Source: an uncultured Eubacteriales bacterium (GTDB taxonomy: Bacteria > Acidobacteriota > Aminicenantia > Aminicenantales > Aminicenantaceae). Taken from it: DNA of 64,000 nucleotides. Below are positions 18,250-37,800 of the stretch, in pieces. Position numbers and translations under genes: made by a program. The notes beneath the pieces are model-generated. The model saw only the letters and a list, made by a program, of their open reading frames with translations. It searched no databases and had not been told where the DNA came from. The stretch is from assembly GCA_964347035.1 (NCBI GenBank), contig CAYFXE010000001.1:48228-112227 (forward strand), read 5' to 3'. Each line of letters begins with the position of its first letter. The first letter of the stretch is position 1.

Positions 18250-18340
18250 GCTGCTGGGGTCAGGCCTTATCCCAAGGTTTTGTACTCGGGTAAAAGTAGA
18301 GACAGAGCGCTTCTGGACGACAAGGCCTGACCCCAGCAGC
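18250..18340. repeat. ~91 bp intergenic element with perfect 19 bp terminal inverted repeats (copy A), MITE/REP-like
   Basis: gctgctggggtcaggcctt ...53 bp... aaggcctgaccccagcagc. A second copy at 50770..50858 carries the internal segment in reverse-complement orientation. Confidence 0.75.
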
Positions 18341-18368: not shown

Positions 18369-19445
18369 TTATAAATACTTATCTTTGTCTTTTTTTCTGA
18401 GGATCTCCACGATATCCTTGACTTTCTGGTCCTGGTCCTTATGACAAATGAGCAGGGCGTCTTCGGTGTCGACCACGACCAGATCCTTAACCCCGACAAG
18501 GGCAGTCAGCTTGCGGGGATTATGGAGGAGGCAGTTTTCTGCGTCCAGAGCAATATTTGCTCCTCTCAAGGCATTCTCTTTATCGTCCTGAGGCCATATG
18601 TCTCTTAAAGAAGACCAGGCCCCTACATCTGACCAGCAGAAATCCCCCACGCCCATCCATACATCTGGAGCCTTTTCCATAAGGGCATAATCGATAGAAA
18701 TTGAGGGGATATCGTCAAAAATAGCCTGGATATTAGCAGCGTCATCTTTTTCAAGGGCGCTCAGAATCCTCTGCCAATACAGGAACATCTCAGGAGCATA
18801 TTGTTCAAGCTTTCGAGCAAAGACAGAAACCTGCCAGATAAACATCCCCGAGTTCCAATAATAATTCCCTTTGTTCAGGAAGGATTTAGCTTGTTCGAGC
18901 TCTGGTTTTTCTTTAAACTCCAGAACCTTGAAGAACTTCTCTTCCCTGATTCGTGTCGGGCTTTCCTCAGAAAACTGAATATAACCGTATCCTGTGGCCG
19001 GATGAGAAGGGGGAATGCCAAAGACAATCAGGTTTTCGCTGTCCGAGGCGGCAGAAGCTCCAGCTTCAAGCTTTATGAGGAACACATCAGCTTCCCTGAT
19101 GAGATGATCGGCGGGGAGGGCAGCTACCACAGCCTCTGGATTCTGATGGTGAATCGAGGCTGTCGCCAGGATTAACGAGGGAGCCGTGTTTTTTCCCTGA
19201 GGCTCAACCAAAAGGTTGGATTCAGGGATTTCTGGCAGGAGCTTGTGTCTGGCCTGGGTTTGCTCCTCGTTGGCGCTGGTATAGATTCTAGAATAAGGAA
19301 TGGATGGGAGAATTCGATGGACGGTTTCCTCGATCATCGTTTTGTCGCTGATAATCGGGAGAAATTGTTTTGGTTTCTTCTTTCGGCTCAAAGGCCAAAA
19401 TCGAGTTCCAGTTCCCCCTGCCATGATCACTGCCCGAAAGTCCAT
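18369..19445 (-). CDS. manC: Mannose-1-phosphate guanylyltransferase
   Basis: MDFRAVIMAGGTGTRFWPLSRKKKPKQF nucleotidyltransferase N-terminus and overall GDP-mannose pyrophosphorylase architecture. Confidence 0.8.
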   Translation of the reverse strand: MDFRAVIMAGGTGTRFWPLSRKKKPKQFLPIISDKTMIEETVHRILPSIPYSRIYTSANEEQTQARHKLLPEIPESNLLVEPQGKNTAPSLILATASIHHQNPEAVVAALPADHLIREADVFLIKLEAGASAASDSENLIVFGIPPSHPATGYGYIQFSEESPTRIREEKFFKVLEFKEKPELEQAKSFLNKGNYYWNSGMFIWQVSVFARKLEQYAPEMFLYWQRILSALEKDDAANIQAIFDDIPSISIDYALMEKAPDVWMGVGDFCWSDVGAWSSLRDIWPQDDKENALRGANIALDAENCLLHNPRKLTALVGVKDLVVVDTEDALLICHKDQDQKVKDIVEILRKKDKDKYL

Positions 19446-19477
19446 TTTTTCCTCGTCTGAAAAGAATAAATTTCAAA

Positions 19478-20848
19478 TCAAGAGTCTGCTAACCTCTTGA
19501 TGACCGTCTCGACGGTATGTTCAACTTCTTTTTTTATGGCCGCCAAGTCTCCTTGGGTGATCGCCTCGAAACGCAGCACCAGGTTTTCCTGGGTATTCGA
19601 GGCTCGAACCAGAGCCCAACCCGTCGGGAAGTTTGCCCTGACACCGTCTATGTCGATAATAGGATATTTTTGAGAAAGTTCTTTCTTGACCTCTTCGACG
19701 ATCTTGAACTTAATTTGATCAGAGGCATAGACTCTGATTTCGGGGGTATGGTACATCTGAGGAAGATCAGAGAGCATCTGGGAAAGCTTTTTTTCGGATC
19801 GAGAAACAATTTCCAGGAGTCGGGCCGAAGAATAGATCGCATCGTCAAACCCGAAATACCTGTCTGCAAAGAAGATATGGCCGCTCATTTCTCCAGCCAG
19901 GAGAGCTTTTTCTTCCTTGATTTTTTTCTTGATCAGAGAATGCCCTGTCTTCCACATCACCGGCCGACCGCCTAATTTTTGAATTTCATCATACAGAAGC
20001 TTGGAAGCTTTGACTTCGGAAATAACCGGGGCACCTGGATTGGCGGGAAGGATATCTCGAGCAAAGATGATCATCAGCTGATCTCCCCAAATAATATTCC
20101 CCTCGTCATCTATTATCCCTATCCTATCGCCATCTCCGTCATAGGCTATTCCTAAATCTGCCTGTGTTTCCGCCACTTTTTGGATGAGGTCCTGAAGGGC
20201 TTCGGGCAGAGTCGGGTCAGGATGATGGTTGGGAAAGGTTCCATCCATCTCACAATAGAGTTCCACGACTTCGCAACCCAATTTTTTGAATATCGGGGAG
20301 GCCACAAAACCTGCCGTGCCGTTTCCGGCGTCAACGATAATTTTTAATTTTTTATCCAGTTTGATGTCTTTAAGGATGAACTCTTCATATTCTGGGATGA
20401 TGTTGTAGCTTGTTTTAGAGTCGCTCTCCTGTTCGACAAATTGGCCATTCTTGATAATGGAATATATTTCTTGGATAGTGGGTCCGTAAAGAGTTTCTTC
20501 CCCCACCATAATCTTGAAGCCGTTGTATTCGGGCGGATTATGGGATCCAGTGATTATGACTCCGGCCTCCTTCTGCTTGTAGTACATGGCGAAATACAGG
20601 GGAGGCGTGGGGATGATCCCCAAGTCGACAACAGCACAACCAGTCGAGAGAAGACCCTTGGTTAGAATATCGGCGAAAGCTGGCGAGCTGAGGCGGCAGT
20701 CTCTCCCCAGTACCACTTCTTTTCTGTCGCGTTGCCGAATATAAGTGCCTATGCCCTTCGCGAGCCACTCGACTGTTTCTGGGGTGAGGTCTTTATCCAC
20801 GGTTCCCCTGATATCGTATTGTCTGAATATGTCTGGGTTGATGTTCAC
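19478..20848 (-). CDS. Phosphomannomutase / phosphoglucomutase
   Basis: Active-site loop TGSHNPPEYNGFK, Mg-binding DGDGDR, 456 aa. Confidence 0.85.
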   Translation of the reverse strand: MNINPDIFRQYDIRGTVDKDLTPETVEWLAKGIGTYIRQRDRKEVVLGRDCRLSSPAFADILTKGLLSTGCAVVDLGIIPTPPLYFAMYYKQKEAGVIITGSHNPPEYNGFKIMVGEETLYGPTIQEIYSIIKNGQFVEQESDSKTSYNIIPEYEEFILKDIKLDKKLKIIVDAGNGTAGFVASPIFKKLGCEVVELYCEMDGTFPNHHPDPTLPEALQDLIQKVAETQADLGIAYDGDGDRIGIIDDEGNIIWGDQLMIIFARDILPANPGAPVISEVKASKLLYDEIQKLGGRPVMWKTGHSLIKKKIKEEKALLAGEMSGHIFFADRYFGFDDAIYSSARLLEIVSRSEKKLSQMLSDLPQMYHTPEIRVYASDQIKFKIVEEVKKELSQKYPIIDIDGVRANFPTGWALVRASNTQENLVLRFEAITQGDLAAIKKEVEHTVETVIKRLADS

Positions 20849-20892
20849 GTTTTTCCTCCTCGATCAGCGGAGGCCATTACCCTCTTCGCTGT

Positions 20893-21465
20893 CTAGGGAT
20901 TATGATCAGGTTTTCCCTTTTTCGAAATATCTCTCAAATCTGCGAGATTCCTGAAGTTTGCCTCGACAGTGCTCCATTTGTCCTGAGATTCGAGGATAAA
21001 TTCGATGAATTCGCGCACAGCTCCTTTCCCCCCGGGCTGGGAACAGATAAAGTGACTCTGTTTTTTGACCTCTGGGTGAGCATCAGCCACGGCTCCTGCT
21101 AGACCTGCGGAGCGGATTACGGTCAAATCTCCCAGGTCGTCTCCGATATAGGCAATCTGTTCAGGATTCAGTTGGTATTTTTCCAAAATTTCATCCAAGC
21201 TATTTTTCTTATCAAGAATCCCTTGGTGAAGTTCATCGATTCTGAGCTTTTCGGCCCTTTTTTCCAGGGATTTTGAGGATTTTCCCGTGATGATTCCCGT
21301 CTTCAGACCGGCTAAATGAGCCAAGATAATTCCTGTGCCGTCTCTGACATTATAGGTTTTAAGCTCTTCCCCATCCGGGAGAATCAGAAGAGTGCCGTCA
21401 GTGAGAGTGCCGTCCACATCCATCAGGATCATTTTTATTTTTCGGGCTCTGTCTTTGTTGGTCAT
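20893..21465 (-). CDS. kdsC: Kdo-8-phosphate phosphatase (HAD)
   Basis: IKMILMDVDGTLTDG...GDDLGD motifs, 190 aa; lies within the kds cluster. Confidence 0.8.
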   Translation of the reverse strand: MTNKDRARKIKMILMDVDGTLTDGTLLILPDGEELKTYNVRDGTGIILAHLAGLKTGIITGKSSKSLEKRAEKLRIDELHQGILDKKNSLDEILEKYQLNPEQIAYIGDDLGDLTVIRSAGLAGAVADAHPEVKKQSHFICSQPGGKGAVREFIEFILESQDKWSTVEANFRNLADLRDISKKGKPDHNP

Positions 21466-22481
21466 CAGAACATCTCTGTTCGCCAGAGGTCATGAAGGTG
21501 GATGATTCCTTCGATTTTTCCCTTTTTGCTCTTGACAATAAGAGAGGTGATTTTGTTCTCCTCCATGATGTTGAGTGCCTCCGTGGCTAAATCATCTCTA
21601 TCGATGGTCTTGGGATCGGGTGTCATACAATCCTCAGCGGTCTTTTCGAGGAAATTTTTTCTGTATTTTTGAACCATCCTTCTCAGGTCGCCGTCAGTGA
21701 TGATGCCCATAAGGGTTCCGTCTTCCTGAATGACACAGGTCATACCGAATTTTTTCCGGCTCATTTCCTCCAGAACATTCCTCATCAGGGTGTCTTTTTT
21801 AACGCGGGGAATCTGGCGGCCCTTGTGCATCAGATGGGCGACTTTCAGGAGCTTCTTACCTGCCTGCCCTTTGGGATGAAAAAAGACAAAGTCTTTTGCC
21901 CCGAATCCTTTTTTCTTCATCAAGGCAATGGCGATCGCGTCTCCCAGGGCTAAGGCGGCGGTGGAGCTCGATGTTGGAATCATGAATGATGGTTCTGCTT
22001 CCCTTTCCACTTTGGCCTCGAGGACAATATCGCTGTATTCGGCCAGCCTGGAATGCTTGTCCCCGGTAATACTTATGAGTTTGACACCGATTCTTTTGAC
22101 GAATTCCAAAAGGTCAACAAGTTCTCGGGTTTCTCCGCTGTAAGAAATGGCTATAAGGATATCATCCTTGAGAATCATACCGAGATCCCCGTGCCCGGCT
22201 TCAGCGGGATGGATGAAGATGGACGGAGTTCCGCAGCTGGCTAAAGTGGCGGCGATCTTGCGGCCAACAAGACCTGACTTGCCCATGCCGGTGACAATCA
22301 CTCGCGAGTTTGAACTATAGATGAGCTCGACAGCTCTAGAAAAATTTTCGTCCAGGGTGGAGGCCAGAGATTCAACGGCCTTGGCTTCTATGTTCAAAAC
22401 CTCTTTACCGGTTTGAAGGATTTCATCTTTTTTCATTGTCTCGCTCTTTCTTAGAAGGGATCTTGGTTTGTATCCCTCCAC
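21465..22481 (-). CDS. kdsD: Arabinose-5-phosphate isomerase (SIS + CBS pair)
   Basis: SIS motif VIVTGMGKSG and tandem C-terminal CBS domains. Confidence 0.85.
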   Translation of the reverse strand: MEGYKPRSLLRKSETMKKDEILQTGKEVLNIEAKAVESLASTLDENFSRAVELIYSSNSRVIVTGMGKSGLVGRKIAATLASCGTPSIFIHPAEAGHGDLGMILKDDILIAISYSGETRELVDLLEFVKRIGVKLISITGDKHSRLAEYSDIVLEAKVEREAEPSFMIPTSSSTAALALGDAIAIALMKKKGFGAKDFVFFHPKGQAGKKLLKVAHLMHKGRQIPRVKKDTLMRNVLEEMSRKKFGMTCVIQEDGTLMGIITDGDLRRMVQKYRKNFLEKTAEDCMTPDPKTIDRDDLATEALNIMEENKITSLIVKSKKGKIEGIIHLHDLWRTEMF

Positions 22482-23299
22482 TTTTTAAGGGCTAGGATGG
22501 AAGCTAGGAGGGGATTGAGGTTATCTAGACTTAGGGCGTTGAGCTTGTCCGATAAGGCCTCTCCGGGATTGTGATGGACTTCCAAGAAGAGCCCATCCGC
22601 TCCTACGCTGACTCCCGCATAAGCGATCGAGGGGATAAATTCAGCCTCTCCCCCTGAATAGATTCCTTCTCCTCCGGGTTTTTGGACACTATGGGAGGCG
22701 TCTATGACCACTGGAAAACCCCATTTTTTCATGATCGGGATGGAACGGACATCGAAAACCAAATTGTTGTATCCAAAGGAAGTTCCTCGCTCGGTAATGA
22801 TGATTTTTTCGTTTCCTTGGTTTAAAGCTTTATCAATGACATTCTGCATATCATAGGGAGAGAGAAACTGTCCCTTTTTGATATTCACCGTTTTTCTTGT
22901 TTTTGCGGCTTCGACGATGAGGTCGGTCTGACGGCTGAGGAAAGCCGGGATCTGGATCACATCCAGCACCTGAGCGGCTGTCTCGATCTGTGAAGTCTCA
23001 TGAACGTCAGAAAGCACAGGGATGTTCAACTCCTCTTTTATTTGCCTGAGAATATCCAACCCCTTTTCGAGGCCTGGTCCGCGGAAAGAATGGAGGGAGG
23101 AACGGTTGGCCTTGTCGTAGGACGCTTTGAAAATAAGCGAAATCGGGAGGTCTTCGCATATTTTTTTTATCTCTTTGGCCATCAGAAAGGCATGATTTTG
23201 GCCTTCTATGACACAGGGGCCTGCAATCAAGAAGAAAGGATTCTCCCCTCCGATCTTGATTTTTTTATTAATGTTTATTTCTCTTACGGCGATGGGCAT
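22451..23299 (-). CDS. kdsA: 2-dehydro-3-deoxyphosphooctonate aldolase (Kdo-8-P synthase)
   Basis: FFLIAGPCVIEG...ASYDKANRSS... motifs. The ORF-track N-terminal extension overlaps pyrG, so the start is placed at MPIAVREIN (23299). Confidence 0.8.
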   Translation of the reverse strand: MPIAVREININKKIKIGGENPFFLIAGPCVIEGQNHAFLMAKEIKKICEDLPISLIFKASYDKANRSSLHSFRGPGLEKGLDILRQIKEELNIPVLSDVHETSQIETAAQVLDVIQIPAFLSRQTDLIVEAAKTRKTVNIKKGQFLSPYDMQNVIDKALNQGNEKIIITERGTSFGYNNLVFDVRSIPIMKKWGFPVVIDASHSVQKPGGEGIYSGGEAEFIPSIAYAGVSVGADGLFLEVHHNPGEALSDKLNALSLDNLNPLLASILALKKWRDTNQDPF

Positions 23300-24878
23300 A
23301 GCTTGCTCCGATAAAGGCTTTGAAGAGCGGATGAGGCTTGAGCGGCTTTGATTTGAACTCCGGATGATACTGACATCCCAGAAACCATGGATGGTTCTTG
23401 ATCTCCATGATTTCAACCAAACCGTAATCAGGATTCTTCCCCGAGATGACCAGACCAGCTCTGGACAGAGCCTCCTCGTATTCTGGGTTGAACTCATAGC
23501 GGTGGCGGTGTCGTTCGTAGATATTCACTTTTCTGTAGGCTTTCTCGGCAAAAGATCCTTTATGGAGGCGACACTGGTATTCACCCAGTCTCATGGTGCC
23601 TCCCAACTTTTTAATGCCTTTAAGCTCTCTCCATTTGAAGAAAATCCTATGGGGAGTTTTGGAATTAAACTCTGTGCTGTTAGCCCCCTTGAGACCGGCT
23701 ATTTTTCTGGCAAATTCGATGGTTGCGCATTGCATACCAAGACAGATTCCGAAGTAAGGAATTTTGTGCTCTCGGGCAAATGTGACGGCCTTGATTTTTC
23801 CCTCTATTCCCCGGATACCAAAACCTCCGGGAACAAGAATGCCATCGGCTTTTCCCAGGACTGCTTCCGTCTTTTTCTTCTCCATATCCTCGGCTTCGAC
23901 CCAGGAAAGATTGAGTCTTAATTTGTGATGAGTGGCTGCATGGATGAGGGCTTGAGTCAAGCTTATGTAAGAGTCATGGAGACCGGCATACTTTCCCACC
24001 AAAGCGATGGTCACTTCATCTGCAGGATTCTTCATCCTCTCGACCATCTTCTTCCACTGACTGAGGCGGCGTCTTCGCGGAGCAAAGTTCAATTGTTTAA
24101 GGATGATGTTATCCAGCTTTTCTTGGGCAAATATAAGGGGAATCTCGTAAATATTATCCACATCTTTGGCTGCGATCACCGCATCTAGGGAGACATTAGT
24201 AAAGAGAGAGATTTTCGCTTTGATATCATCGCTAAGAAACCTATCGGTTCGGCAGAGGATGATATCAGGCTGAATCCCGATTGCCCGTAGCTCTCGGACG
24301 CTGTGTTGGGTGGGTTTTGTCTTGAGTTCTCCAGAGGTTTTTATGTAGGGAACTAAAGTCAGATGAATAAACAGAGAGTTCTCTGTTCCTAGGGTAAGCC
24401 GCATCTGTCGTATGGCCTCGAGAAAGGGCTGACTTTCTATATCCCCGACCGTGCCCCCGATCTCGACGATGACGATGTCATTCTCGTCGGCCACAGAGTA
24501 GAAGGCATTTTTGATTTCGTCTGTAACATGAGGAATAACCTGAACGGTTTTTCCGAGGAAATCTCCCATCCTTTCCTTTTTAATGATGTTTTCGTAGATT
24601 TTACCAGCAGTCCAGTTGTTAGCCTTTGTCGTCTGAGTCGAGGTGAATCGTTCATAATGGCCCAAATCTAGGTCTGTTTCGGCTCCGTCATCTGTCACAT
24701 AGACTTCTCCGTGTTGGAAGGGATTCATGGTTCCCGGATCCACATTTAGGTAGGGATCAAACTTTTGGAGGGTGATGCGGTAGCCGTGGCTTTCCAAAAG
24801 ACGCCCGATAGAAGCGGCCGCAATGCCTTTGCCTAAGGCAGAGAGCACTCCTCCGGTGATAAAAATGAATTTACTCAT
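23268..24878 (-). CDS. pyrG: CTP synthase
   Basis: MSKFIFITGGVLSALGKGI... N-terminus and C-terminal glutamine amidotransferase (GICLGMQ), 536 aa. Confidence 0.9.
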   Translation of the reverse strand: MSKFIFITGGVLSALGKGIAAASIGRLLESHGYRITLQKFDPYLNVDPGTMNPFQHGEVYVTDDGAETDLDLGHYERFTSTQTTKANNWTAGKIYENIIKKERMGDFLGKTVQVIPHVTDEIKNAFYSVADENDIVIVEIGGTVGDIESQPFLEAIRQMRLTLGTENSLFIHLTLVPYIKTSGELKTKPTQHSVRELRAIGIQPDIILCRTDRFLSDDIKAKISLFTNVSLDAVIAAKDVDNIYEIPLIFAQEKLDNIILKQLNFAPRRRRLSQWKKMVERMKNPADEVTIALVGKYAGLHDSYISLTQALIHAATHHKLRLNLSWVEAEDMEKKKTEAVLGKADGILVPGGFGIRGIEGKIKAVTFAREHKIPYFGICLGMQCATIEFARKIAGLKGANSTEFNSKTPHRIFFKWRELKGIKKLGGTMRLGEYQCRLHKGSFAEKAYRKVNIYERHRHRYEFNPEYEEALSRAGLVISGKNPDYGLVEIMEIKNHPWFLGCQYHPEFKSKPLKPHPLFKAFIGASYAHRRKRNKH

Positions 24879-25596
24879 CCTGGTGTTTTCTCAAGAAATT
24901 TTCAACCCTGATTATATCCTCAGGGGAGTCCACGCTCAAGGAGGGAAATGAAGATTCTATGACTTTTATCTGGTATCCGTTTTCAAGAGCTCTGAGCTGT
25001 TCGAGTTTTTCTGACTCCTCCAGCCGAGAAGAAGGCATCTTTCGTAATTTCATCAAGAAATCCTTCTGATAACCGTAAACACCGACGTGCTGTAGGAAAT
25101 AGTCATTCGCCTGGAAAGGTAAAGGAGAGCGAGAAAAATACAGGGCATCACCCTCCTTGTTGACCACCACTTTGACCGTGTTTTGATCGTTGAAGCGGCC
25201 GAAGTCAGTGGCCCGGACTGCCAGGGTAGCCATCGGTATGGATTCGTCTTGAAGGGTGGTGACCAATTCATCGATCATATCCGCCTGGATAAGGGGTTCA
25301 TCTCCTTGGACGTTGAGGACAATAGGTGTATTTAACTTCTCTGCTACTTCCGCTACCCTTTCCGTTCCCGAGTTGTGGTCAGGCGAAGTCATCCAGGCCT
25401 CAGCCCCGAATCCTCTGCAGGTCTCCAAGATCCGTTCATCATCGGTCGCAATGATTAGACGTGCTAGGGATTTGGATTGGCTGGCGTGTTCATAGACTCT
25501 CTGAATCAAATGTTTACCCTGGATGAGGGCCAGCATTTTCCCTGGAAATCGAAGAGACTGATAGCGAGCAGGGATAATCCCTGTGGCTCTTCTCAA
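24871..25596 (-). CDS. kdsB: 3-deoxy-manno-octulosonate cytidylyltransferase (CMP-Kdo synthetase)
   Basis: IIPARYQSLRFPGK... N-terminus, 241 aa. Confidence 0.85.
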   Translation of the reverse strand: MRRATGIIPARYQSLRFPGKMLALIQGKHLIQRVYEHASQSKSLARLIIATDDERILETCRGFGAEAWMTSPDHNSGTERVAEVAEKLNTPIVLNVQGDEPLIQADMIDELVTTLQDESIPMATLAVRATDFGRFNDQNTVKVVVNKEGDALYFSRSPLPFQANDYFLQHVGVYGYQKDFLMKLRKMPSSRLEESEKLEQLRALENGYQIKVIESSFPSLSVDSPEDIIRVENFLRKHQDE

Positions 25597-25991
25597 GGTT
25601 GTGGTCCTTCTAGTATCTTTTTTTCTGGCACAATCTGGGGAGCCTTATCTGTCGTCTGGCAGTTGGCCTCGAGATAAGCTCCTTCCTCCACCGTCAGTTT
25701 CGGGGTGACGATTGTTCCGGTGACTCGACCGTTGGCGTGAATTTCGACCTTCTCCCGGGCTTGAACATTGCCCTTAATTTCTCCGTTTATGATGAGGTGT
25801 CCGACTTTGATGTCCGCTTCCACTCTTCCGTGCTCGCCGATGATAAGGGTGGATTCAGAATCGATTTTTCCCTTGAATCGGCCGTCTATACGGAAAGATC
25901 CTTTGAAGATTAAATCCCCTTTAAATTCTGTTCCTTTGTCGTAAAAACCAGTAATCTTTGTGTCGTCTATGTCTTTTCTTTTTTCTTTCAT
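25593..25991 (-). CDS. Bactofilin (DUF583/CcmA-type cytoskeletal protein)
   Basis: Repetitive beta-helical pattern (GSFRIDGRFKGKIDSESTLIIGEHGRVEADIKVGHLIINGEIKGNV...), 132 aa. Sits 3 bp after parB and overlaps kdsB by 4 bp. Confidence 0.75.
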   Translation of the reverse strand: MKEKRKDIDDTKITGFYDKGTEFKGDLIFKGSFRIDGRFKGKIDSESTLIIGEHGRVEADIKVGHLIINGEIKGNVQAREKVEIHANGRVTGTIVTPKLTVEEGAYLEANCQTTDKAPQIVPEKKILEGPQP

Positions 25992-25993
25992 AA

Positions 25994-26836
25994 TTATTCT
26001 CCTTTGATGTGTTCATAGATTCTGTTTAGATCATCGATAGAAAAATAATAGACTTTTATCACACCCTTGTTCTGAGTTCCTGAGATGGAGACCTTTGTTC
26101 CTAAAATCTTCAGGAATTCCTCTTGGAGTGCCACCAAATCGGCATCTGTTGGTTGAGTCTCTCGAGAAGGGGATTGAGAATTTCTTTTCTGAGTTATCTT
26201 TTCGACATCACGGACCGACAGGCTGTCTCGGACAATCTGCTGGGCGAGAGAGGCTTGAAGGTTAGGATCGTCTACAGAGAGCAAAGCTCGGGCATGACCC
26301 ATCGAAAGTTTTCCTTCTCCGAGGTAATCCTGGATTTCCTTGGGGAGGCTAAGAAGACGTAGGTAGTTTGTCACCGAAGTTCTGTCTTTTCCCACCTTTT
26401 CTGCCACTTCCTCTTGGGTATAATCCAGTTCTTGAATCAATTTTTGGTAGGCTAAGGCAATCTCCAAGGGATTGAGGTCTTCCCGATGTAGGTTTTCGAT
26501 GAGAGAAGCTTCTAATTGTTTCTCCTTTGGCATGGTTCGGATGAGAACAGGAATTTTTTTGAGACCTATCTGTTGGGCAGCTCGCCATCTCCGTTCTCCG
26601 ATAATGATCCGGTAAAAATCTCCTTCAGGGACAGCGATGACCGGCTGGAGCACACCAGACTCCTTGATAGAACGCGCCAGTTCCTGTATGGATTCACGAC
26701 TGAAAGCCAATCTCGGTTGAATCGGATTGGGCTTGAGCTTGTCGATATCTAAATCAGCGTAGCTGTCTTCCTTTAAAATTCCGTATTCTTCTGGGATGAA
26801 GGCTTTTAATCCCTTTCCCAATGCTTTCTTTTTCAT
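25994..26836 (-). CDS. parB: Chromosome partitioning protein ParB
   Basis: ParB box (GERRWRAA) and HTH region, 280 aa, downstream of parA. Confidence 0.9.
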   Translation of the reverse strand: MKKKALGKGLKAFIPEEYGILKEDSYADLDIDKLKPNPIQPRLAFSRESIQELARSIKESGVLQPVIAVPEGDFYRIIIGERRWRAAQQIGLKKIPVLIRTMPKEKQLEASLIENLHREDLNPLEIALAYQKLIQELDYTQEEVAEKVGKDRTSVTNYLRLLSLPKEIQDYLGEGKLSMGHARALLSVDDPNLQASLAQQIVRDSLSVRDVEKITQKRNSQSPSRETQPTDADLVALQEEFLKILGTKVSISGTQNKGVIKVYYFSIDDLNRIYEHIKGE

Positions 26837-27588
26837 TTCTTTAATATCTCCAGAGCTAAATCTAGATATGCCTGAGCCCCCTTGGATTTAATATCGTAGA
26901 GAAGTATTGGCTTGCCAAAACTAGGTGCCTCAGCCAATCTTACGTTGCGAGGAATCACAGCCTTATATGTATTCTCCTCGAGGGAGCATCTGACCTCTTG
27001 AGCAACCTGTTTGGAGAGGTTTGTCCTCTCATCATACATGGTGAGCAATATCCCTTCAAGAGCCAAGGAGGAATTAAGGTAAGTGCGTACTTCATCAAAG
27101 ACACGAAAAAGCTCTGGGATTCCTTCCATCGAGAGAAATTCGCACTGAACTGGCACCAAAACCGAATCAGCGGCCGTCAAGGCATTGAGAGTGAGGAATC
27201 CCAAGGAGGGAGGACAATCGATGATGATGAAGTGGAAAAACTTTCTAATTCTCTCCAGAGCCGACTTGAGCCTTTTTTCTTGATTCTCCATTTCGTAAAG
27301 CTCGGCTTCGACTCCGGACAATTCTGGGGAAGAAGGGCAGATATACAGGTTATCGAGGAGAGTGGGTCGGATATAATCCATAATATACCGTCCGTCCATC
27401 AGGGCAGGGTAGATGCCCTTCTTATCCTCCTTGATCCTGCCTAGACCAGCGGAGGCCATGCCTTGGGGATCGAGATCGACAACCAAAACCCTCCGATTGT
27501 TGATGGCCAGAGAAGCGGAGAGGTTCACGGCCGTGGTCGTTTTTCCCACGCCCCCTTTCTGATTTGCGATGGCGATAATTCTATTCAT
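26833..27588 (-). CDS. parA: Chromosome partitioning ATPase ParA/Soj
   Basis: Deviant Walker [18 protein letters not shown]. Confidence 0.9.
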
Positions 27589-29444
27589 TTGTCCTTAAAT
27601 GTTCCACGTGGAACATTCTTACGGTTTTGGATCTTCAGATACATACTCAGGTTGACGATAGCCGCTGGAGTGATCCCCGGGATCTTCTTGGCTTCTCCGA
27701 TGGTTCGAGGACCACATTTTTTTAATTTTTCTCTTACTTCCCGAGTCAGGCCTGGAATTTCCTGAAAATCTGTCCCTGCCGGAATCCTTTCCCTATCCAT
27801 TTTTCTAATCCGGGCAATCTCTATATCCTGCCTTTTCAAGTACCCTTCGTATTTGATCTCTGATTCGATGTGACGGATTTCCTCATCGGTCAAGGTATCG
27901 TCAAATTTTCTATATTCTAACACATTTTTGAATCTGACTTCAGGTTTTTTTAGGAACTCTCTCAGGAAGATTTTTTCCTTACCAGGGAGTTTGATCTTTT
28001 CTCGCTTGAGTGAGGTCATGAGACTCTGTATTTTTTCTTGCTTCTTGAGGAATGCTTCGTAGGCATCCTGTTGGATGAGCCCCAGCTCATGTCCATATTT
28101 AGTCAATCTTTTATCCGCATTATCGATGCGAAGGAGAATCCTGTATTCTGCCCTGGAGGTGAATAGCCGATAGGGTTCTTCGATCCCTCTGGAGATGAGG
28201 TCATCGATCAGGACGCCGATGTAGGCCTCGTTCCTTCCCAGGATAAAAGGTTTTTTCTTCTTTATTTTCAAAGAAGCATTGATGCCAGCCATCAGCCCCT
28301 GGGCGGCAGCTTCTTCGTAGCCTGATGTGCCGTTGATCTGGCCAGCTAGGTAAAGGTTTTTGATGGGTTTTGTTTCTAAGGTAGGAAGGAGTTGTGTGGG
28401 CAAAACAGCATCGTATTCAATGCCGTAGGCGGGTCTCAATATTTTTGCTCGGTCCAATCCTGGGATACTCTTCAAGATGCTTTTTTGAACCTCGAAAGGA
28501 AGGCTTGAAGAGAGACCGTTGACGTAGATTTCCTCTGTTCCTACGCCTTCAGGTTCGAGGAAGAATTGATGTCGGTGATGATGGGGAAATTTAACCACTT
28601 TATCTTCTATAGAGGGACAATAGCGAATCCCTATCCCGATGATTTTCCCGCTGTAAAGGGGTGATTTATCGAGATTTTTCCTTATGATTTCGTGTGTTTT
28701 GGGTCCTGTATACCCGATGTAGCAGACGATTTTATTCTCGAGTTCTTTTTTAGTCCGGAAGGAGAAGGCAACTGGCTTTTTGTCTCCTGGCTGAGGATTG
28801 AAACGATGCCAATCTATGGTCTGGCTGTGGAGCCTCATCGGGGTCCCAGTTTTCAATCGGAATGATTTAAGGCCAAGGGTTTTAAGGTTACGACTGAGTT
28901 CAATGGCGGGGGGTTCGTTGGCTCTCCCCGCAGGATAGCTTTGAAGACCGATATGGATTAGACCATTCAGGAACGTTCCCGGAGTGAGAATGACCGCTTT
29001 GCCCAAGATTCTGTTTCCCTCTAGGGTCTTCACTCCCACAGCTTTGAAGCCTTTGGTCAGGATTTCAGTGACGATCCCTTGGAAGAGTGTCAAACGGGGA
29101 ACCTTCTCAAGCCAGTTTTTCATGGTCAACCTGTAGTGAGCCTTATCTGACTGGGCCCGCGGGGCTTGCACAGCACCGCCTCGGCTCCTGTTTAAAAGCC
29201 GGAATTGTATCCCCGTTTCATCGGCGAGAAGTCCCATAAGACCGCCTAGAGCATCAATCTCACGGACAAGATGTCCTTTGGCCAGCCCGCCAATAGCCGG
29301 ATTACAGGACATTTGAGCGATGGTTTCCAGATGAATGGTGATGAGGCAGGTTTCTAGGCCCATCCGGCTGGCAGCATGGGCAGCTTCGCAGCCGGCATGG
29401 CCGGCGCCGACGACGACGACGTCGTATTCATCCGAGGTGCTCAT
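27585..29444 (-). CDS. mnmG: tRNA uridine-5-carboxymethylaminomethyl modification enzyme MnmG (GidA)
   Basis: FAD motif [16 protein letters not shown], 619 aa. Confidence 0.9.
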
Positions 29445-29452
29445 GGCTCATC

Positions 29453-30820
29453 CTATTTTCCGATGCAGAAACGGCTGAAGATATTCTCGATGATTTCATC
29501 AACCTGGATTTCTCCAGTGAGCTGTCCGATAAGAGGAATGACCTTACGGAGTTCCTCCACATACAGGTCTTCAGGGAAGCCCTCCTCGAGGAGTCGTCGG
29601 CCCTCTTCCAGGTAGCCAAGGATTTCTTCGAGATGAAGCTTCTGACGGAGATGAAGGATGACCTCTTCCTGCTGATCCAGGTTCGGAACGAAATGTTTAT
29701 GGATCATGCCTCTCAGCTTATCCAGGTTTATTCCCTTCAGAGCAGAAATCTCCAGGGAAGGAATGGTCTTTCCCTTACATCTGATGGCCCCTTTGTCCAT
29801 TCTCTGCTTTAAATCCATTTTGTTGAAAAGGAGGAGAAGCTTTTTGTCCTTGTATTCATCCAAGAACTTGAGATCTTCCCTAGACTCTTTGCGGGATAAA
29901 TCAAGCAGAAGGAGCACTCCATCTGACTCTTCAATGAGCTTTTTTCCTCTTTTGATTCCTTCTTTTTCCACAGGATGGGAGGGAGCCGTGATGCCGGCCA
30001 TGTCGATGAGCGTGAACAGGGAATCCTTGATTTTTAAGCTTTCCTGAAGATAATCTCTCGTTGTTCCTGGATAAGGAGTGACAATCGCCCTTTCTTTTTC
30101 GAGAAGGACATTGAACAGGGTAGATTTTCCGACGTTTGGCCTGCCCGTGATGGCTATTGTCAGACCTTCGCTCAAGGTTTTCCCCAAGTTATAGCTTTTG
30201 ATAAGCATTTCTATGCTCTCGACGGTCTTGCGGAGAGTGTTGTGGATCTGTTCTTTGCTCAGCTGCAGATCCTCGTCGGGGAACTCGATGCTGGCCTCGA
30301 TTTGGGATAAGAGTTGGATGATTTTTTTTCTGAAAGCAGATACTTTTTTGGAGAGACTCCCATCAAGCTGCTTGAAAGAAATCTGGGCCTGTTTGAGCGA
30401 AGTTGCCTGGATGAGATCATTGACGGCCTGGGCTTGGAGGATATCGATTCTTCCCCTGAGGTAGGCGCGAAGAGTGAATTCGCCGGGATGGGCATGCCTT
30501 GCTCCAGCCTTGATGCCTAAACGAACGATTTCCTCGAGGATCAAAGGGCTTCCGTGGCAGCTTATTTCGACTACATCCTCTCTGGTGTAAGTATGGGGCT
30601 GAGGGAAGTAGGTCAGGTAGGCTTCTTCGAAAAATTCCTTCTGATCGAAGTTGTACAGATTACCCAACAGGGCGCGATAAGGTTGAATTTGAGTTTTTTG
30701 TTTCTTTGGTTTGAATATTTTTTTAGCTATGGGAAGAGATTTTTTTCCACTCAGCCGTACGATTCCTAAGCCCCCGTATCCGAGTGGTGTCGAGATGGCA
30801 ATGATCGTATCTTCAGCCAT
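29453..30820 (-). CDS. mnmE: tRNA modification GTPase MnmE (TrmE)
   Basis: N-terminal AISTPLGYGGLGIVRLSG, G-domain GRPNVGKST, C-terminal CIGK. Confidence 0.9.
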   Translation of the reverse strand: MAEDTIIAISTPLGYGGLGIVRLSGKKSLPIAKKIFKPKKQKTQIQPYRALLGNLYNFDQKEFFEEAYLTYFPQPHTYTREDVVEISCHGSPLILEEIVRLGIKAGARHAHPGEFTLRAYLRGRIDILQAQAVNDLIQATSLKQAQISFKQLDGSLSKKVSAFRKKIIQLLSQIEASIEFPDEDLQLSKEQIHNTLRKTVESIEMLIKSYNLGKTLSEGLTIAITGRPNVGKSTLFNVLLEKERAIVTPYPGTTRDYLQESLKIKDSLFTLIDMAGITAPSHPVEKEGIKRGKKLIEESDGVLLLLDLSRKESREDLKFLDEYKDKKLLLLFNKMDLKQRMDKGAIRCKGKTIPSLEISALKGINLDKLRGMIHKHFVPNLDQQEEVILHLRQKLHLEEILGYLEEGRRLLEEGFPEDLYVEELRKVIPLIGQLTGEIQVDEIIENIFSRFCIGK

Positions 30821-31150
30821 AGCCTCTATATAATAAATCTTGGACCCGAAAACGTAAAGATCCTGATTTTAGGAGTCAGACTATGTAGTGATGAGTAAGG
30901 ATAGAGTAAAATTTAATGGGTGGATTGACAAGATAACGAGAACTGCTGCTGACTCTTGCAGGTGCATGCTTAAAGAGAGAAATACGACGGTTTATGCGTT
31001 GGGTATTTACAGGAATGAGGAAAAAGCATGAAGGAGGGATTGATCATCATCAAGCTGGGATTAATTATATATAATATATAAAATATATAGAATTACGAGG
31101 ATTAAAATGCCATTTCTTTTTTTAGATTGTAGAGATTGGATGGAGACGAA

Positions 31151-31789
31151 TTACTCCTCAGATTGGTCTTTTTCGGAAAAGATTTTTACTCTCTTTAAGA
31201 ATCCTTCACCCATACTTTCGGTCATAATTCCGGGAAATTGATTGACTGCGATATGAACGATCCGTCTTTCATAGGGATTCATCAGATCGAGAATCTCATT
31301 CTTCCCTGTCTCGTGGACTTGACGGGCCTTTTGCTGAGCGAACTGTCTTAGCTCTCTCTCCTTTCTTTTTCGGTAGAAGTCGCAGTCAGTTTGGACTTTT
31401 TGAGGGGAGATCTTGTTGAGCACGTGTTGAAGAGCCAAAAGAAGGGAGCCGTCTTTTCTCAGCAGGAGATACTTATCCTTCCCTTCGAAAATCAGATAGA
31501 TCATATCGTTTTTTCTTTTGACCTGATACTTGATTTCCAGGGGGAAAAGCGTCAGGAGCTTGTCCAGGAACTCAGAAATTGCGCTTTCTTCTTCTTGTTC
31601 TTTGGGCCAGGCTCGGATAACAATCTCTTTACTCTTCATCCCGAAGAGTTTTGTTTTTTCGGTAACGACCTCATAGTTGAATTGGGAGCGAGGAAGTTTT
31701 AGAGCGTGCTCAGCAGCAGCGATGACTTCTTCTAGATTCCTTCCTTTGAATTCCTGTCCTTCGTTATTTTTTTCGTTTTTTTCTTCCAT
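31151..31789 (-). CDS. jag: Jag/KhpB RNA-binding protein (KH + R3H)
   Basis: C-terminal R3H (NPYERRIVHIAV); sits downstream of yidC. Confidence 0.8.
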   Translation of the reverse strand: MEEKNEKNNEGQEFKGRNLEEVIAAAEHALKLPRSQFNYEVVTEKTKLFGMKSKEIVIRAWPKEQEEESAISEFLDKLLTLFPLEIKYQVKRKNDMIYLIFEGKDKYLLLRKDGSLLLALQHVLNKISPQKVQTDCDFYRKRKERELRQFAQQKARQVHETGKNEILDLMNPYERRIVHIAVNQFPGIMTESMGEGFLKRVKIFSEKDQSEE

Positions 31790-33425
31790 GCGTTTCTCGC
31801 TTTTTCTTTTGCTTGAGGCGATTCATGATGTACTGTTGTGCGATTTGGAGAACGTTATTGGTCAGCCAGTAGAGGACAAGGCCGCTCTGGAAATTCATAA
31901 AAAAGATGGTCATGATGACCGGCATGATGAGCATCATTTTTTGCTGAGTGGGATCAGCCGTGGTGGGGGTCATTTTTTGGCTGATAAATTGGGTGATACC
32001 CATAAGGATCGGTGTCACATAGAAAGGATCCTTAACCGAGAGATCCTTTATCCAAAAAATAAAGGGACTATGTCTAAATTCAATCGATACAATTAGAAGC
32101 CGGAAAAATCCCCAAAAAATAGGGATTTGGACGAGGATAGGCAAACAGCCTCCGGCCGGATTGATACCGTGCTCCTTGTAGAGCTTCATCATTTCCTCGT
32201 TCATCTTGCGTCTCTGAGCGATGTCCTGTTTGGCCTTCTTGTATTTCGCTCTCAAGGCTTTGATCTTTGGCTGTAATTCCTGCATTTTGGCCATGGACTT
32301 TGTACTGCTGTATGTGAGGGGAAAGAAAAGGATTTTTATAATCAGGGTCAGGATGATGATGCTGAAGCCCCAATTGGGGATGACACTATAGATCGCTTTT
32401 ATGGCTTTCAGAAGAATCTGGGCGATCCAGCCGAAAAAGCCAAATCGAATCAGATTCTTAGTCCCCGAGCCAAATTCACTCAGGGCATCATATTCCTTTG
32501 GCCCTATATAGGCTTTCTGGGCATAGGAGAGAGTGAGGAAAAAGTAGGGTAGTTGGTCTTTTTCCTTTCTGAGGAAAGCGGCACTCGATTTCTGGGAATC
32601 CGCCAAGAAAAGAGCCGTAAAGTAGTTGTCCTCGTAAGCCGCCCAGTGGACAAAATTGAAGAGGCTTCGTTCTGGTTTATATTTCCTCTCCTCGTTTCGA
32701 TGGATTTTATCCGCGGTGAAAACGGCAACCCCTCTAGATCCTCCGAACCGCCTTTTCTCATCCTGCGGAGTTGGGTTTCCAAGGCTTGGCCCCCATAGGA
32801 GACGAGGATCGATTTTTTGACCTTTCTTCCAAACGCTGATGCTGACATCAAACGTGTATTTTCCTCCCTGGAAAAAGAAAGTCTTTTCGACACGGTTTCC
32901 CTCCTCATCGGCATACTGGAAACGGAGCTCACCTTCTTGGTTCTCCTTCAATTCGACCTTCGGATTGGAAAATGTGTACAGGACGCTGTTGATGGAGGCA
33001 TCGAAAGTCGGATCATCGGTGTGTAAAGCGAAGGGATAGGTACTGATTTCTTCGGATCGTAAGGAGATCATCTCAAAATCTTCCTTGTTTTCATCTTTGT
33101 ACTTTTTGAGCCTCCAGCTTTTAAGGACAGCCCCTTTATTGCTCCAGATTGCCTGATACAGAGGCGAGTCGATGAGAATCTGCTCTTCAACTGTTCCTGA
33201 AGTGGGTTCAGTGATGAGTTCTTCTTTACGAGGCTCTTCCGGCTGCGAGACAAGCGGGGAGGGAATCTGGCTTTTGGTGGAGGGCTCTGGAACTGGTTTT
33301 TTTTCGATGTCCTGAATTTGTTCAGAGATTTTCTCCTGGGGAGGAGGCTTCTTCACGAAAAGAATTTGATAGAGTACCAGGACTAGAAAGGAAAGCACGA
33401 TGGCCAATAATAGTCTTTTTTCCAT
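31764..33425 (-). CDS. yidC: Membrane protein insertase YidC
   Basis: Large periplasmic domain plus conserved C-terminal five-TM core, ending in a basic tail. Start chosen at MEKRLLLAIVLSF (33425). Confidence 0.85.
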   Translation of the reverse strand: MEKRLLLAIVLSFLVLVLYQILFVKKPPPQEKISEQIQDIEKKPVPEPSTKSQIPSPLVSQPEEPRKEELITEPTSGTVEEQILIDSPLYQAIWSNKGAVLKSWRLKKYKDENKEDFEMISLRSEEISTYPFALHTDDPTFDASINSVLYTFSNPKVELKENQEGELRFQYADEEGNRVEKTFFFQGGKYTFDVSISVWKKGQKIDPRLLWGPSLGNPTPQDEKRRFGGSRGVAVFTADKIHRNEERKYKPERSLFNFVHWAAYEDNYFTALFLADSQKSSAAFLRKEKDQLPYFFLTLSYAQKAYIGPKEYDALSEFGSGTKNLIRFGFFGWIAQILLKAIKAIYSVIPNWGFSIIILTLIIKILFFPLTYSSTKSMAKMQELQPKIKALRAKYKKAKQDIAQRRKMNEEMMKLYKEHGINPAGGCLPILVQIPIFWGFFRLLIVSIEFRHSPFIFWIKDLSVKDPFYVTPILMGITQFISQKMTPTTADPTQQKMMLIMPVIMTIFFMNFQSGLVLYWLTNNVLQIAQQYIMNRLKQKKKRETHGRKKRKK

Positions 33426-33436
33426 ACGAAAATCCT

Positions 33437-33646
33437 TCAAGGAACTGGGTCGATTCCTCCTGGATGGAGGGGATGACATTTAAGAAGCCTTTTGCTTCCG
33501 AGGAATGTTCCTTTTAAGAACCCATATTTTTCGATGGCTTCATACGTGTAGACGGAGCAAGAAGGATGGAAACGACAGCAATCGCCAACAAAAGGCGAGA
33601 TGACTTTTTGGTAAAGTCTAAGCAGGATTAAGGCGATGTATCTCAT
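33437..33646 (-). CDS. yidD: Membrane protein insertion efficiency factor YidD
   Basis: 69 aa with the characteristic CRFHPSCS...HPGG motif. Confidence 0.85.
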
Positions 33647-33999
33647 GGAGTCTGATTACTCTGTCTGATCGAATCAACGGCTGCGAGGTATTCTTTATGT
33701 AGATCTGACAGCGAAAGGCCGAGAATCTTTTTGTTGGGAATAATAATCATATCCACATGAACGTTGAGCAATTTTTTATTCTGTCGGAAAAGAGCCCTCA
33801 TGTTTCTTTTAATCTTGTTCCTCTCGACAGCGTTTCCAACTTTCCGGCTCACGACGATAGCCAAGCGAGAGAAGCTAAGGTTGTTGGAGATATAAATCAG
33901 ATTGAATGCCTTGCCTCTGTGGCGCTTGCCGTCTTTATAGATTAGTAAAAAATCCTTTTTCTTTCTTATCCTCTCACGAGGACTGAGAGTTTCATCCAT
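33643..33999 (-). CDS. rnpA: RNase P protein component
   Basis: Basic ~118 aa protein ([24 protein letters not shown]). Its ATG overlaps the rpmH stop (ATGA). Confidence 0.85.
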
Positions 34000-34133
34000 C
34001 AAGCGGAGAGTCTTTTTCTTCCTTTTTGTCTGCGGTGACTGATGATGTGCTGCCCACCTTTAGTTCTCATCCGGACCAGAAAGCCATGGGTCTTCTTCCT
34101 TTTCCTTTTGTTGGGTTGAAATGTTCTTTTCAT
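33999..34133 (-). CDS. rpmH: 50S ribosomal protein L34
   Basis: Hand-translated: [44 protein letters not shown] (44 aa). Missing from the ORF track because it is under 60 aa. Confidence 0.9.
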
Positions 34134-34224
34134 GGCGCCTTCGAGTTTCTCAAGAATGAAAGAGTATGTTAATAAACCTGTGGGCTTCTGTCAAGCGGAT
34201 AGGAAGAATGACCCAATCTTCTGT

Positions 34225-34261: not shown

Positions 34262-34780
34262 ATGGATCTATTCAAGATTGGCGATAAAGTCATTTATCCC
34301 AATCAGGGGCTGGGTGTTGTCGAGGATATTCAAAACGAGAACTACTACGGGGAAAACTTTATAATCTACCACGTCAGAATCATAGCCAATAATACTCTGG
34401 TCCTCGTCCCCTCTTCCACGGCCATTGAGATCGGCATCCGGAAGCCTATCGAAGAGAATGACGTTGAGGAGATATTCGATTTCATGAAAAACGGCCGGGT
34501 GGATGTGACGATGAACTGGAAAGGGCGCTACAAGGAACATCTCGATCTTATGAAAACGGGATCGATCCTTGATATGGCGCTTGTTTTAAAGAGCCTCTAC
34601 TATCTTAATCTCATAAAGCCTCTTTCTTTCCGTGAGAAAAAAATGATGGAGAAGGCAAAGGATCTTATCGTGACTGAGATATCAGAGGTCGCCTCGATGC
34701 CTTCCACGAAGATTGAAGATAAGCTTTTCGAGACCCTATCTTTCTGCTTCAAAGATATTCAGTCGCGGATGGATTCCTAA
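34262..34780 (+). CDS. CarD/CdnL family RNA-polymerase-binding transcription factor
   Basis: N-terminus MDLFKIGDKVIYPNQGLGVVEDI matches the CarD_CdnL_TRCF RNAP-interaction domain; 172 aa. Confidence 0.75.
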   Translation: MDLFKIGDKVIYPNQGLGVVEDIQNENYYGENFIIYHVRIIANNTLVLVPSSTAIEIGIRKPIEENDVEEIFDFMKNGRVDVTMNWKGRYKEHLDLMKTGSILDMALVLKSLYYLNLIKPLSFREKKMMEKAKDLIVTEISEVASMPSTKIEDKLFETLSFCFKDIQSRMDS

Positions 34781-37465: not shown

Positions 37466-37800
37466 TTTTTCTTCTTTTTGATGGGGGATGGAGTGTCCTG
37501 GGATTCTTTTTTTTCGTCGAGTTTATACAGATACTTTATGTTATTTTTGAAGATCAGAAGATTCGGCTCATGGTCTCGGTTGAGTTTTACGCAATTTCTA
37601 TCATACCACTCGATATATCCTTCGATTTCTTCGCCATCGGAAAGGACGACAGCCATATGCGTTTTTTTATTCATCTGTTTGAGATAATAATAATTCTCAG
37701 CGTGGGTTTCCGAAGGAGGATGGGACTTCTTTTTGGCTGTTTCACGGCTCATCTTTTCCTTAATTTCAGAAAGATTGGGTCTTATAAGTTTCCTGTTCAT
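37462..37800 (-). CDS. Hfq-like Sm-fold protein with a lysine-rich tail
   Basis: Sm1-like segment HMAVVLSDGEEIEGYIEWYDRNCVKL and Sm2-like IFKNNIKYL (compare Hfq YKHAI), with a C-terminal KKKKK tail. Overlaps the pdxA start by 4 bp. The actual start may be an internal Met. Confidence 0.45.
   Translation of the reverse strand: MNRKLIRPNLSEIKEKMSRETAKKKSHPPSETHAENYYYLKQMNKKTHMAVVLSDGEEIEGYIEWYDRNCVKLNRDHEPNLLIFKNNIKYLYKLDEKKESQDTPSPIKKKKK

Follow-up and report, generated by a model that had tools for sequence, protein, structure and literature searches.

The 64,000-nt stretch of DNA considered here (the window), from an uncultured bacterium of the Aminicenantes, carries between positions 18369 and 34133 a block of 17 genes, all on the minus strand, which begins with rpmH and ends with manC, and within which the partition genes parA and parB are followed directly by a bactofilin gene and then by genes for the synthesis of 3-deoxy-D-manno-octulosonate (Kdo) and of sugar nucleotides. 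This block is an array of housekeeping operons that is conserved throughout the Aminicenantes clade; it represents the form which the parAB-bactofilin arrangement, familiar from Myxococcus, takes in this lineage, and is no evidence for a new segregation scaffold. A preliminary description, made from the letters of the window, had recognized the co-directional run from rpmH to manC, the absence of rsmG, and the separation of dnaA from rpmH, in whose place a carD-like gene diverges; all of this holds, the gene identities being those given by Pfam and NCBIfam and the absences extending over the whole 64 kb.

The evidence that carries this reading is comparative. A bactofilin-profile scan of species-representative genomes yielded 80 loci, all of Aminicenantes type, four of them on closed chromosomes (CP070750.1, CP070825.1, OY970261.1, and OY969586.1), and synteny across these loci (L001-L080) was followed by tblastn with the window proteins, the order being read as far as each contig extends. 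The same order, that is, the carD-like gene on the opposite strand and then rpmH to manC on one strand, was found in 80/80 species loci, each to its contig limit. The parB-bactofilin-kdsB synteny, which the preliminary description had singled out for comparison with related genomes, is kept throughout: parB and the bactofilin gene are adjacent in all 80 loci, their gap ranging from -11 to +7 nt and the two genes overlapping by 4 nt in 54 cases, and the bactofilin gene and kdsB are adjacent in the 79 of 79 loci that reach kdsB (gap -4 to +5 nt). Similarly, parA and parB overlap by 4 nt in 70/77 loci, and kdsB and pyrG by 8 nt in 50/68. The identity of the ParB proteins to that of the window is only 59-83%, so that the sample of loci is a deep one. 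By contrast, conservation does not extend to the flanks: downstream of manC, the DUF362 gene recurs in a single locus, and the genes beyond carD vary. An arrangement maintained in the same order and on the same strand in 80/80 loci, while its flanks vary, is far beyond chance.

The variation that does exist within the block is limited; apart from the length of the jag-mnmE gap, it concerns two genes and leaves the remainder in place. The pyrG gene is absent between kdsB and kdsA in 8 of the 72 loci that have both (L017, L023, L030, L032, L046, L051, L052, and L057), the rest of the block being intact, and uppP (undecaprenyl-diphosphatase, PF02673) is found between the mutase gene and manC in L008 (16387-17319) and in L093 (14525-15232), a divergent relative that has the full window-type block. 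This gene probably accounts for the gaps of more than 400 nt between these two genes in 23/64 loci, L008 and L093 being those that were checked; the window has no uppP there, only a gap of 32 nt.

The junctions of the window itself are equally tight (Table 1). Overlaps of 4 nt join rpmH/rnpA, rnpA/yidD, mnmG/parA, parA/parB, and bactofilin/kdsB, the last of these being the sequence TTGA, with kdsB starting at TTG; other overlaps are those of kdsB/pyrG (8 nt), pyrG/kdsA (32 nt), and kdsD/kdsC (1 nt), and the gaps are of 8 nt (mnmE/mnmG), 44 nt (kdsC/mutase), and 32 nt (mutase/manC), with a sizeable one, of 330 nt, only between jag and mnmE. The gap between the parB stop and the ATG of the bactofilin gene is of 2 nt, and not of 3 as first read, with a GGAG located within the end of parB. 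In all 80 species the junctions of parB, bactofilin, and kdsB are of this stop/start-overlap type, so there is no intergenic room for a promoter or a terminator, and a scan of the window sequence found no terminator-like site at the parB/bactofilin junction. The bactofilin is thus probably co-transcribed with the ParABS genes and translationally coupled to parB, to judge from these spacings. The whole block is probably divided into two predicted transcription units, of which one would extend from rpmH to jag and the other from mnmE to manC, with the 330-nt gap as the probable site of an internal promoter for the latter. A hairpin at 23251-23233, at first a candidate terminator after pyrG, was discarded, as it falls within the coding sequence of kdsA once the start of this gene is corrected to the ATG at 23299 (N-terminus MPIAVREINI..., with a GGAG Shine-Dalgarno sequence). 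No structured RNA or riboswitch was found in the window at the Rfam gathering thresholds, the jag-mnmE gap giving a chance-level match only, and the window contains no tRNAs.

Gene identities were established by Pfam and NCBIfam profile searches with curated cut-offs, rpmH and yidD being read as small open reading frames (ORFs); the counterpart of yidD in L084, a locus of Anaeromyxobacter, carries the YidD domain PF01809. The pathway to cytidine monophosphate-Kdo (CMP-Kdo) is complete, with KdsD, KdsA, KdsC, and KdsB all encoded in the block and all scoring above their NCBIfam cut-offs (KdsA, NF003543, 393 bits against 242; KdsB, TIGR00466, 221 against 155; KdsC, TIGR01670, 165 against 107; KpsF/GutQ, TIGR00393, 308 against 204). 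The ManC protein matches the bifunctional model TIGR01479 over positions 3-351 of 467, that is, over the guanylyltransferase part only. The mutase, for which the identity of GlmM was ruled out (216 bits against a cut-off of 448), scores 525 bits with NF046027, below its cut-off of 600.

Table 1. Genes and sites of the conserved block and its borders in the 64,000-nt window.
Feature	Coordinates	Strand	Basis and remarks
rpmH, ribosomal protein L34, 44 aa	33999..34133	-	ORF and translation; tblastn orthologue in 58 loci; first gene of the block
rnpA, RNase P protein	33643..34002	-	PF00825, E 6e-27
yidD, membrane protein insertion efficiency factor, 69 aa	33437..33646	-	ORF; conserved in 59 loci
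yidC, membrane insertase	31764..33479	-	PF02096 and PF14849; a later ATG may be the true start
jag, Jag_N and R3H RNA-binding protein	31151..31789	-	PF14804, PF01424
AT-rich jag-mnmE gap, 330 nt	30821..31150	-	promoter-like TTTACG-17-TATTAT at 30858-30830
mnmE, tRNA modification GTPase	29453..30820	-	PF10396, PF12631, PF01926
mnmG/gidA	27585..29444	-	PF01134, E 5e-158
parS, perfect 16-bp palindrome TGTTCCACGTGGAACA	27600..27615	.	within the 3' end of mnmG, 12 nt upstream of the parA ATG
parA, partition ATPase of Soj type (deviant Walker A), 251 aa	26833..27588	-	PF13614, E 1.6e-58; PF01656, E 8e-27
parB	25994..26836	-	PF02195, PF17762, PF23552; TIGR00180 above cut-off
bactofilin, 132 aa	25593..25991	-	PF04519, E 4.9e-32
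kdsB, CMP-Kdo synthetase	24871..25596	-	PF02348; TIGR00466 and NF003952 above cut-off
pyrG, CTP synthase	23268..24878	-	NF003792, 843 bits
kdsA, Kdo-8-phosphate synthase	22451..23299	-	NF003543, 393 bits
kdsD, arabinose-5-phosphate isomerase, SIS and CBS domains	21465..22481	-	TIGR00393 KpsF/GutQ, 308 bits; start uncertain
kdsC, Kdo-8-phosphate phosphatase, HAD family	20893..21465	-	TIGR01670, 165 bits
phosphomannomutase/phosphoglucomutase	19478..20848	-	four PGM_PMM domains; closest to PgmG
manC-type mannose-1-phosphate guanylyltransferase, without isomerase domain	18369..19445	-	PF00483 and PF22640; last gene of the block
carD-like transcription factor	34262..34780	+	PF21095 and PF02559; diverges from rpmH, same place in 46 loci
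promoter-like TTGACA-17-TAACAT	34166..34194	-	rpmH/carD intergenic region; consensus scan only, 10/12 matches
palindromic intergenic element, 91 nt	18250..18340	.	at the 3' boundary of the block, after manC; second copy at 50770-50860

Judged by its sequence features, the ParABS system of the window is complete and canonical. ParB has the N-terminal ParA-activating motif LGKGL, a CTPase-fold N domain with the GERRWRA motif for the binding of cytidine triphosphate (CTP), a helix-turn-helix, and, at the C-terminus, a domain for dimerization; KALGKGLKAFIP and GERRWRA are both displayed in its sequence, and its score with TIGR00180 (parB_part) is 193 bits, well over the cut-off of 58, whereas that with the Noc-specific model stays below the cut-off. 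The parS palindrome is the single match in the 64 kb, and a parS-like site lies some 20-50 nt upstream of parA in 72/76 related loci; the site of the window together with these equivalents suggests that the partition complex would assemble on the parA locus itself.

This does not make the window the origin of replication, even though the order rpmH to parB, the single strand, and the parS at par are those of the canonical origin cluster (in Bacillus subtilis, dnaA-dnaN; rpmH-rnpA-yidC-jag-mnmE-mnmG-rsmG-parA-parB). Compared with this cluster, the block is without rsmG, has no dnaA or dnaN within 30 kb, shows neither a cluster of DnaA boxes nor a switch of GC skew, and is extended by the bactofilin and the envelope-precursor genes. 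No GidB, DnaA, or DnaN domain was found by Pfam in any sizeable ORF of the window, and tblastn with DnaA, DnaN, and RsmG from L081, L082, and L089, three loci outside the clade described below, gave no match in the window or in L001-L080; in addition, mnmG and parA share a stop/start overlap of 4 nt, with no rsmG between them. The carD-like gene occupies the site where dnaA stands in many genomes. GC skew, by which the preliminary description had proposed to locate the origin elsewhere, does not reveal one here: the cumulative skew climbs monotonically through the window without a switch, and this, together with the scattered DnaA boxes (21 found against 12.4 expected, without a cluster) and the absence of dnaA and dnaN, led to the rejection of oriC in the window. 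The jag-mnmE gap was also considered as an origin and rejected, because its length is not conserved in relatives (23-2099 nt). The possibility that the block runs head-on to replication, suggested by third-position GC skew on the coding strand (-0.01 in plus-strand genes versus -0.16 in minus-strand genes, the plus strand of the window being G-enriched whatever the orientation of the genes), was likewise dropped, since the measure is inconsistent on the three loci that abut dnaA (+0.20, -0.12, and -0.19) and gives no consistent contrast over 16 related loci.

The bactofilin of the window carries the full domain of its family, PF04519 spanning residues 18-112 (profile positions 4-98 of 98), and it matches solved bactofilins in the PDB (6RIA, 1.1e-10; 2N3D, 1.5e-5). 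Its N-terminus, MKEKRKDIDDTKITGFYDK (MKEKRKDIDD...), has no Phe at position 2, and in the clade this region is conserved as MKEKKREIDE.KITGFFDK, a charged, clade-invariant tail; a EEGAYLEANCQTTDK motif is conserved at the C-terminus. The membrane-targeting consensus MFSKKKK (PMC12448750) is present in most bactofilins but not in all, and is no strict requirement of the family; no canonical sequence of this type occurs at the N-terminus of the window protein. Eight diverse bactofilin queries found a single bactofilin in the 64 kb, and the window contains neither a PadC-like gene nor a second gene of the ParB family, ParB being the only match and the Pfam scans of the window ORFs giving no further domain of this type.

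When 1.84 billion cluster representatives were searched exhaustively, 17,019 bactofilin clusters were obtained, of which the bactofilin clade of the window makes up one or two; close homologues (identity up to 92%) come from metagenome-assembled genomes (MAGs) of Candidatus Aminicenantes, and the next nearest clusters are some 45-55% identical. The genomic contexts of 11 relatives, selected independently of gene context, were looked up, and in none of the 11 was the bactofilin unlinked from parAB. For the nearest relatives outside the clade, which represent at least three phylum-level groups, 10/10 bactofilin genes are on the strand of parAB and downstream of it, at a distance of 3 nt to 3.3 kb. 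The preliminary description had allowed that the bactofilin might be a neighbor by mere adjacency, as its presence elsewhere in related genomes would indicate; none of these loci has it elsewhere, and the linkage recurs in other phyla, so that adjacency alone does not describe it.

The neighbors of this parAB-bactofilin unit differ with the lineage. Three Acidobacteriota-type loci (L081, L082/L083, and L089, labelled as MAGs of Aminicenantes, Acidobacteria, and Omnitrophota) have dnaN, dnaA | small membrane protein, rsmG, parA, parB, bactofilin, kdsB, pyrG; they share with the window the core from parA to pyrG, with a parB-bactofilin gap of 3-19 nt and bactofilins 53-54% identical to that of the window (L081, L082, and L089), and they keep dnaA, dnaN, and rsmG, but they lack the part from rpmH to mnmG and the extension kdsA-kdsD-kdsC-pmm-manC. 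The order in Anaeromyxobacter (L084/L085) is rpmH-rnpA-yidD-yidC-jag-x-rsmG-parA-parB-bactofilin, followed by ATP synthase genes, and six further loci (L086, L087, L088, L090, L091, and L092), one labelled Bdellovibrionota and one a "Pseudomonadota" MAG, have mnmG-(x)-parA-parB-bactofilin-atpF-atpF-atpH-atpA-atpG-atpD-atpC. In four of these six, or 4/7 of the atp-type loci, parB and the bactofilin gene are separated by one to four unrelated called genes (a serpin; a thioesterase and DJ-1; PMSR and an antitoxin-like gene; an acetyltransferase), while the bactofilin gene overlaps atpF or lies 1 nt from it. What stays constant across phyla is thus the link of parAB with the bactofilin, and the Kdo/CTP partner is confined to Acidobacteriota-type genomes; that Kdo genes follow the bactofilin only in these, and atp genes in the Myxococcota- and Bdellovibrionota-type genomes, argues against a general functional unit of bactofilin and Kdo synthesis. 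The missing rsmG and the missing adjacency to dnaA are ordinary rearrangements, and mnmG-parA without rsmG is also seen in the Bdellovibrionota-type loci. The clade of the window differs from its sister loci in having no dnaA/rsmG adjacency and in the addition of rpmH to mnmG upstream and of kdsA to manC downstream, from which it may be supposed that an ancestral Acidobacteriota-type layout, dnaA | rsmG-parA-parB-bac-kdsB-pyrG, would have given rise to a module cut off from dnaA and rsmG, placed behind the genes from rpmH to mnmG, and lengthened by the addition of kdsA-kdsD-kdsC-pmm-manC.

Two observations on these relatives may be recorded in their own right. The small protein between dnaA and rsmG (L081 3412-3675, L082 3378-3560, L089 2156-2317) is a conserved hydrophobic one of 53-87 aa, with the motif FSPYLL..DF and no Pfam match. 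The bactofilin gene of the six non-Anaeromyxobacter atp-type loci (at about 6000-12400 in each) resembles the first gene of an F-type ATP synthase operon.

As regards the function of the bactofilin, the closest known system is that of Myxococcus xanthus, where bacM lies directly downstream of parAB (PMC5703909) and parA-parB-bacM are co-transcribed (PMC3899335). The parA-parB-bacM-MXAN_7474 operon resembles the window in having a single bactofilin immediately downstream of parAB on the same strand, with co-transcription demonstrated there and predicted from the 2-nt gap here; the window differs in its phylum, in its stop/start-coupled junction, and in being followed by kdsB-pyrG and the Kdo genes instead of by a lipoprotein gene. 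The two bactofilins are likened by position only, by way of a Myxococcota relative, Anaeromyxobacter P0369, whose bactofilin, 41% identical to that of the window, occupies the same place. BacM serves to maintain cell shape, and its deletion leaves the localization of ParA and of ParB fused to yellow fluorescent protein (ParB-YFP) unaltered (PMC5703909). The likeness to Myxococcus drawn in the preliminary description is sound as regards the position of BacM but not as regards the actual ParABS scaffold, which consists of BacNOP and PadC, an adaptor resembling ParB, with genes in an operon of their own that is not beside parAB (PMC5703909), and whose features are absent from the window.

From all this, a picture can be proposed in which ParB would load at parS and form CTP-dependent clamps, the complex being moved by ParA, while the bactofilin would be made in step with ParB and, by analogy, would polymerize without nucleotide. 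Since it corresponds to BacM by position, it most likely serves as a scaffold related to cell shape or to the envelope and is expressed along with the partition genes. PyrG, beside KdsB, could feed CTP to the synthesis of CMP-Kdo, the pathway to which would be completed by KdsD, KdsA, and KdsC, and the mutase and ManC would make GDP-mannose. As a whole, this picture of a conserved operon array with a BacM-type bactofilin that has an envelope or shape role, and is not an obligatory anchor of ParAB, is the one that we favor, with moderate confidence.

Several points weigh against it. The co-transcription and the translational coupling are read from gene spacing alone. The promoter-like matches in the window are no commoner than in shuffled sequence (25 found against 18.9 ± 3.6), and they include TTGAGC-17-TATAAT inside the coding region upstream of pyrG (24939-24911), a possible internal promoter. 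Furthermore, the role given to the bactofilin has as its model one studied positional analogue, from another phylum and likened by position, and the conservation across phyla of the site downstream of parAB exceeds what a pure shape function predicts.

It is this last point that keeps alive the idea of a dedicated segregation scaffold, in which a parAB-linked bactofilin polymer would anchor ParB-parS or ParA, directly or indirectly, in the manner of BacNOP-PadC; we hold it to be rather unlikely, yet it is the most serious of the alternatives. The stop/start-coupled parB-bactofilin junction is invariant in 80/80 species and in all 10 of the nearest relatives outside the clade the gene keeps its place downstream of parAB and on its strand, the N-terminal tail is strongly conserved and departs from the canonical form, the C-terminal EEGAYLEANCQTTDK motif could bind a partner, and a protein partner is plausible given that there is no canonical membrane-targeting sequence. 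That bactofilins can organize ParABS is proved by M. xanthus, where, in a genome with a canonical ParABS as in the window, the bactofilin family proteins BacNOP can position ParA and ParB-parS. However, BacM, the only parAB-adjacent bactofilin that has been studied, is dispensable for the localization of ParA and ParB and for segregation, and BacNOP, three paralogues encoded with PadC in their separate operon, act through PadC, whereas the window has one bactofilin without paralogues and neither a PadC-like gene nor a second ParB-fold gene. Moreover, in the 4/7 atp-type loci where unrelated genes split parB from the bactofilin gene, it is to atpF that the latter stays tied. The scaffold co-expressed with envelope precursors that had been suggested for the window is thus supported only in part, by junctions of the stop/start-overlap type from parB to kdsB in 80/80 loci, and is countered by the dispensability of BacM and by a Kdo link that is limited to Acidobacteriota-type genomes.

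The opposite extreme would be that the position has simply been inherited in a slowly rearranging, origin-associated region, the tight spacing reflecting nothing other than genome compaction. Such an explanation would account for a downstream partner that depends on the lineage (Kdo and CTP genes, ATP synthase genes, or the lipoprotein gene of M. xanthus), for the loss of pyrG from 8 loci and the gain of uppP in others with the remainder undisturbed, and for the insertions between parB and bactofilin in some Bdellovibrionota-type loci; but it is improbable, since the flanks turn over fast and yet the block is invariant at a ParB identity of only 59-83%, stop/start overlaps are kept at each junction from parA to pyrG, and the linkage persists across phyla. 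Least convincing, and very improbable, is an operon of CTP economy in which ParB, KdsB, and PyrG (filament-forming in some bacteria) together would tie the supply of CTP to the assembly of the partition complex and to the synthesis of the lipopolysaccharide core, with the bactofilin as co-scaffold: the parA-parB-bac-kdsB-pyrG core common to both Acidobacteriota-type layouts and the GERRWRA motif of ParB agree with it, but pyrG is absent from the block in 8/72 loci with kdsB and kdsA, atp genes follow the bactofilin in Myxococcota- and Bdellovibrionota-type genomes, and the synthesis of CMP-Kdo is in itself sufficient to explain the pairing of kdsB with pyrG. This pairing is reported from Chlamydia too; our literature search found no citation for kdsB-pyrG operons.

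Between these positions and the favored one, it may be speculated that the bactofilins downstream of parAB form one ancient orthologous clade, extending over Acidobacteriota/Aminicenantes, Myxococcota, and Bdellovibrionota-type genomes, and that their conserved position reflects an accessory role in ParABS, one that in M. xanthus would be hidden because BacNOP are redundant with it. This role would be, for example, the tethering of ParB-parS or of ParA, or the coupling of the centromere region to the biogenesis of the envelope or of the energy machinery. We offer this as a tentative suggestion, and a rather doubtful one.

Other features of the window deserve mention. The palindromic element after manC has perfect 19-bp arms, GCTGCTGGGGTCAGGCCTT ... 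AAGGCCTGACCCCAGCAGC, that enclose a loop of some 53 nt, the interior being inverted between the two copies, and its RNA folds at -59.2 kcal/mol (z-score -8.2); as it is absent from all 92 fetched loci, it is genome-specific, resembling miniature inverted-repeat transposable elements (MITEs) or repetitive extragenic palindromes (REPs). Two plus-strand ORFs, 14319-16847 (842 aa) and 11364-13394 (676 aa), match no Pfam family at E <= 0.001, and two plus-strand paralogues some 50 kb apart, 8257-9984 and 59015-60706, both combine a beta-lactamase fold with DUF3471. An Hfq-like ORF of 112 aa (37462-37800, minus strand; PF21979 and PF17209) lies directly upstream of pdxA on the same strand, with a 4-nt overlap.

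The genes of the block are all of well-known families, and the analysis demonstrates no new mechanism. What the block does show is how an origin-type cluster has been rebuilt in the Aminicenantes, losing its connection with dnaA and rsmG and being merged with genes for Kdo and sugar nucleotides, and as such it helps annotation and operon prediction in the MAGs of this lineage. It also shows that the parA-parB-bactofilin unit, with its stop/start-overlapping junctions, has been kept throughout an entire uncultured lineage and is encountered again in at least two further groups of phylum rank; our literature search found nothing on the bactofilins of Aminicenantes or on parAB-bactofilin synteny in general, and the only parAB-linked bactofilin ever studied, BacM of Myxococcus, was found to be unrelated to segregation. 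Genomes in which a single bactofilin is coupled to parAB would therefore offer a clean setting in which to test whether these proteins have a role in partition.

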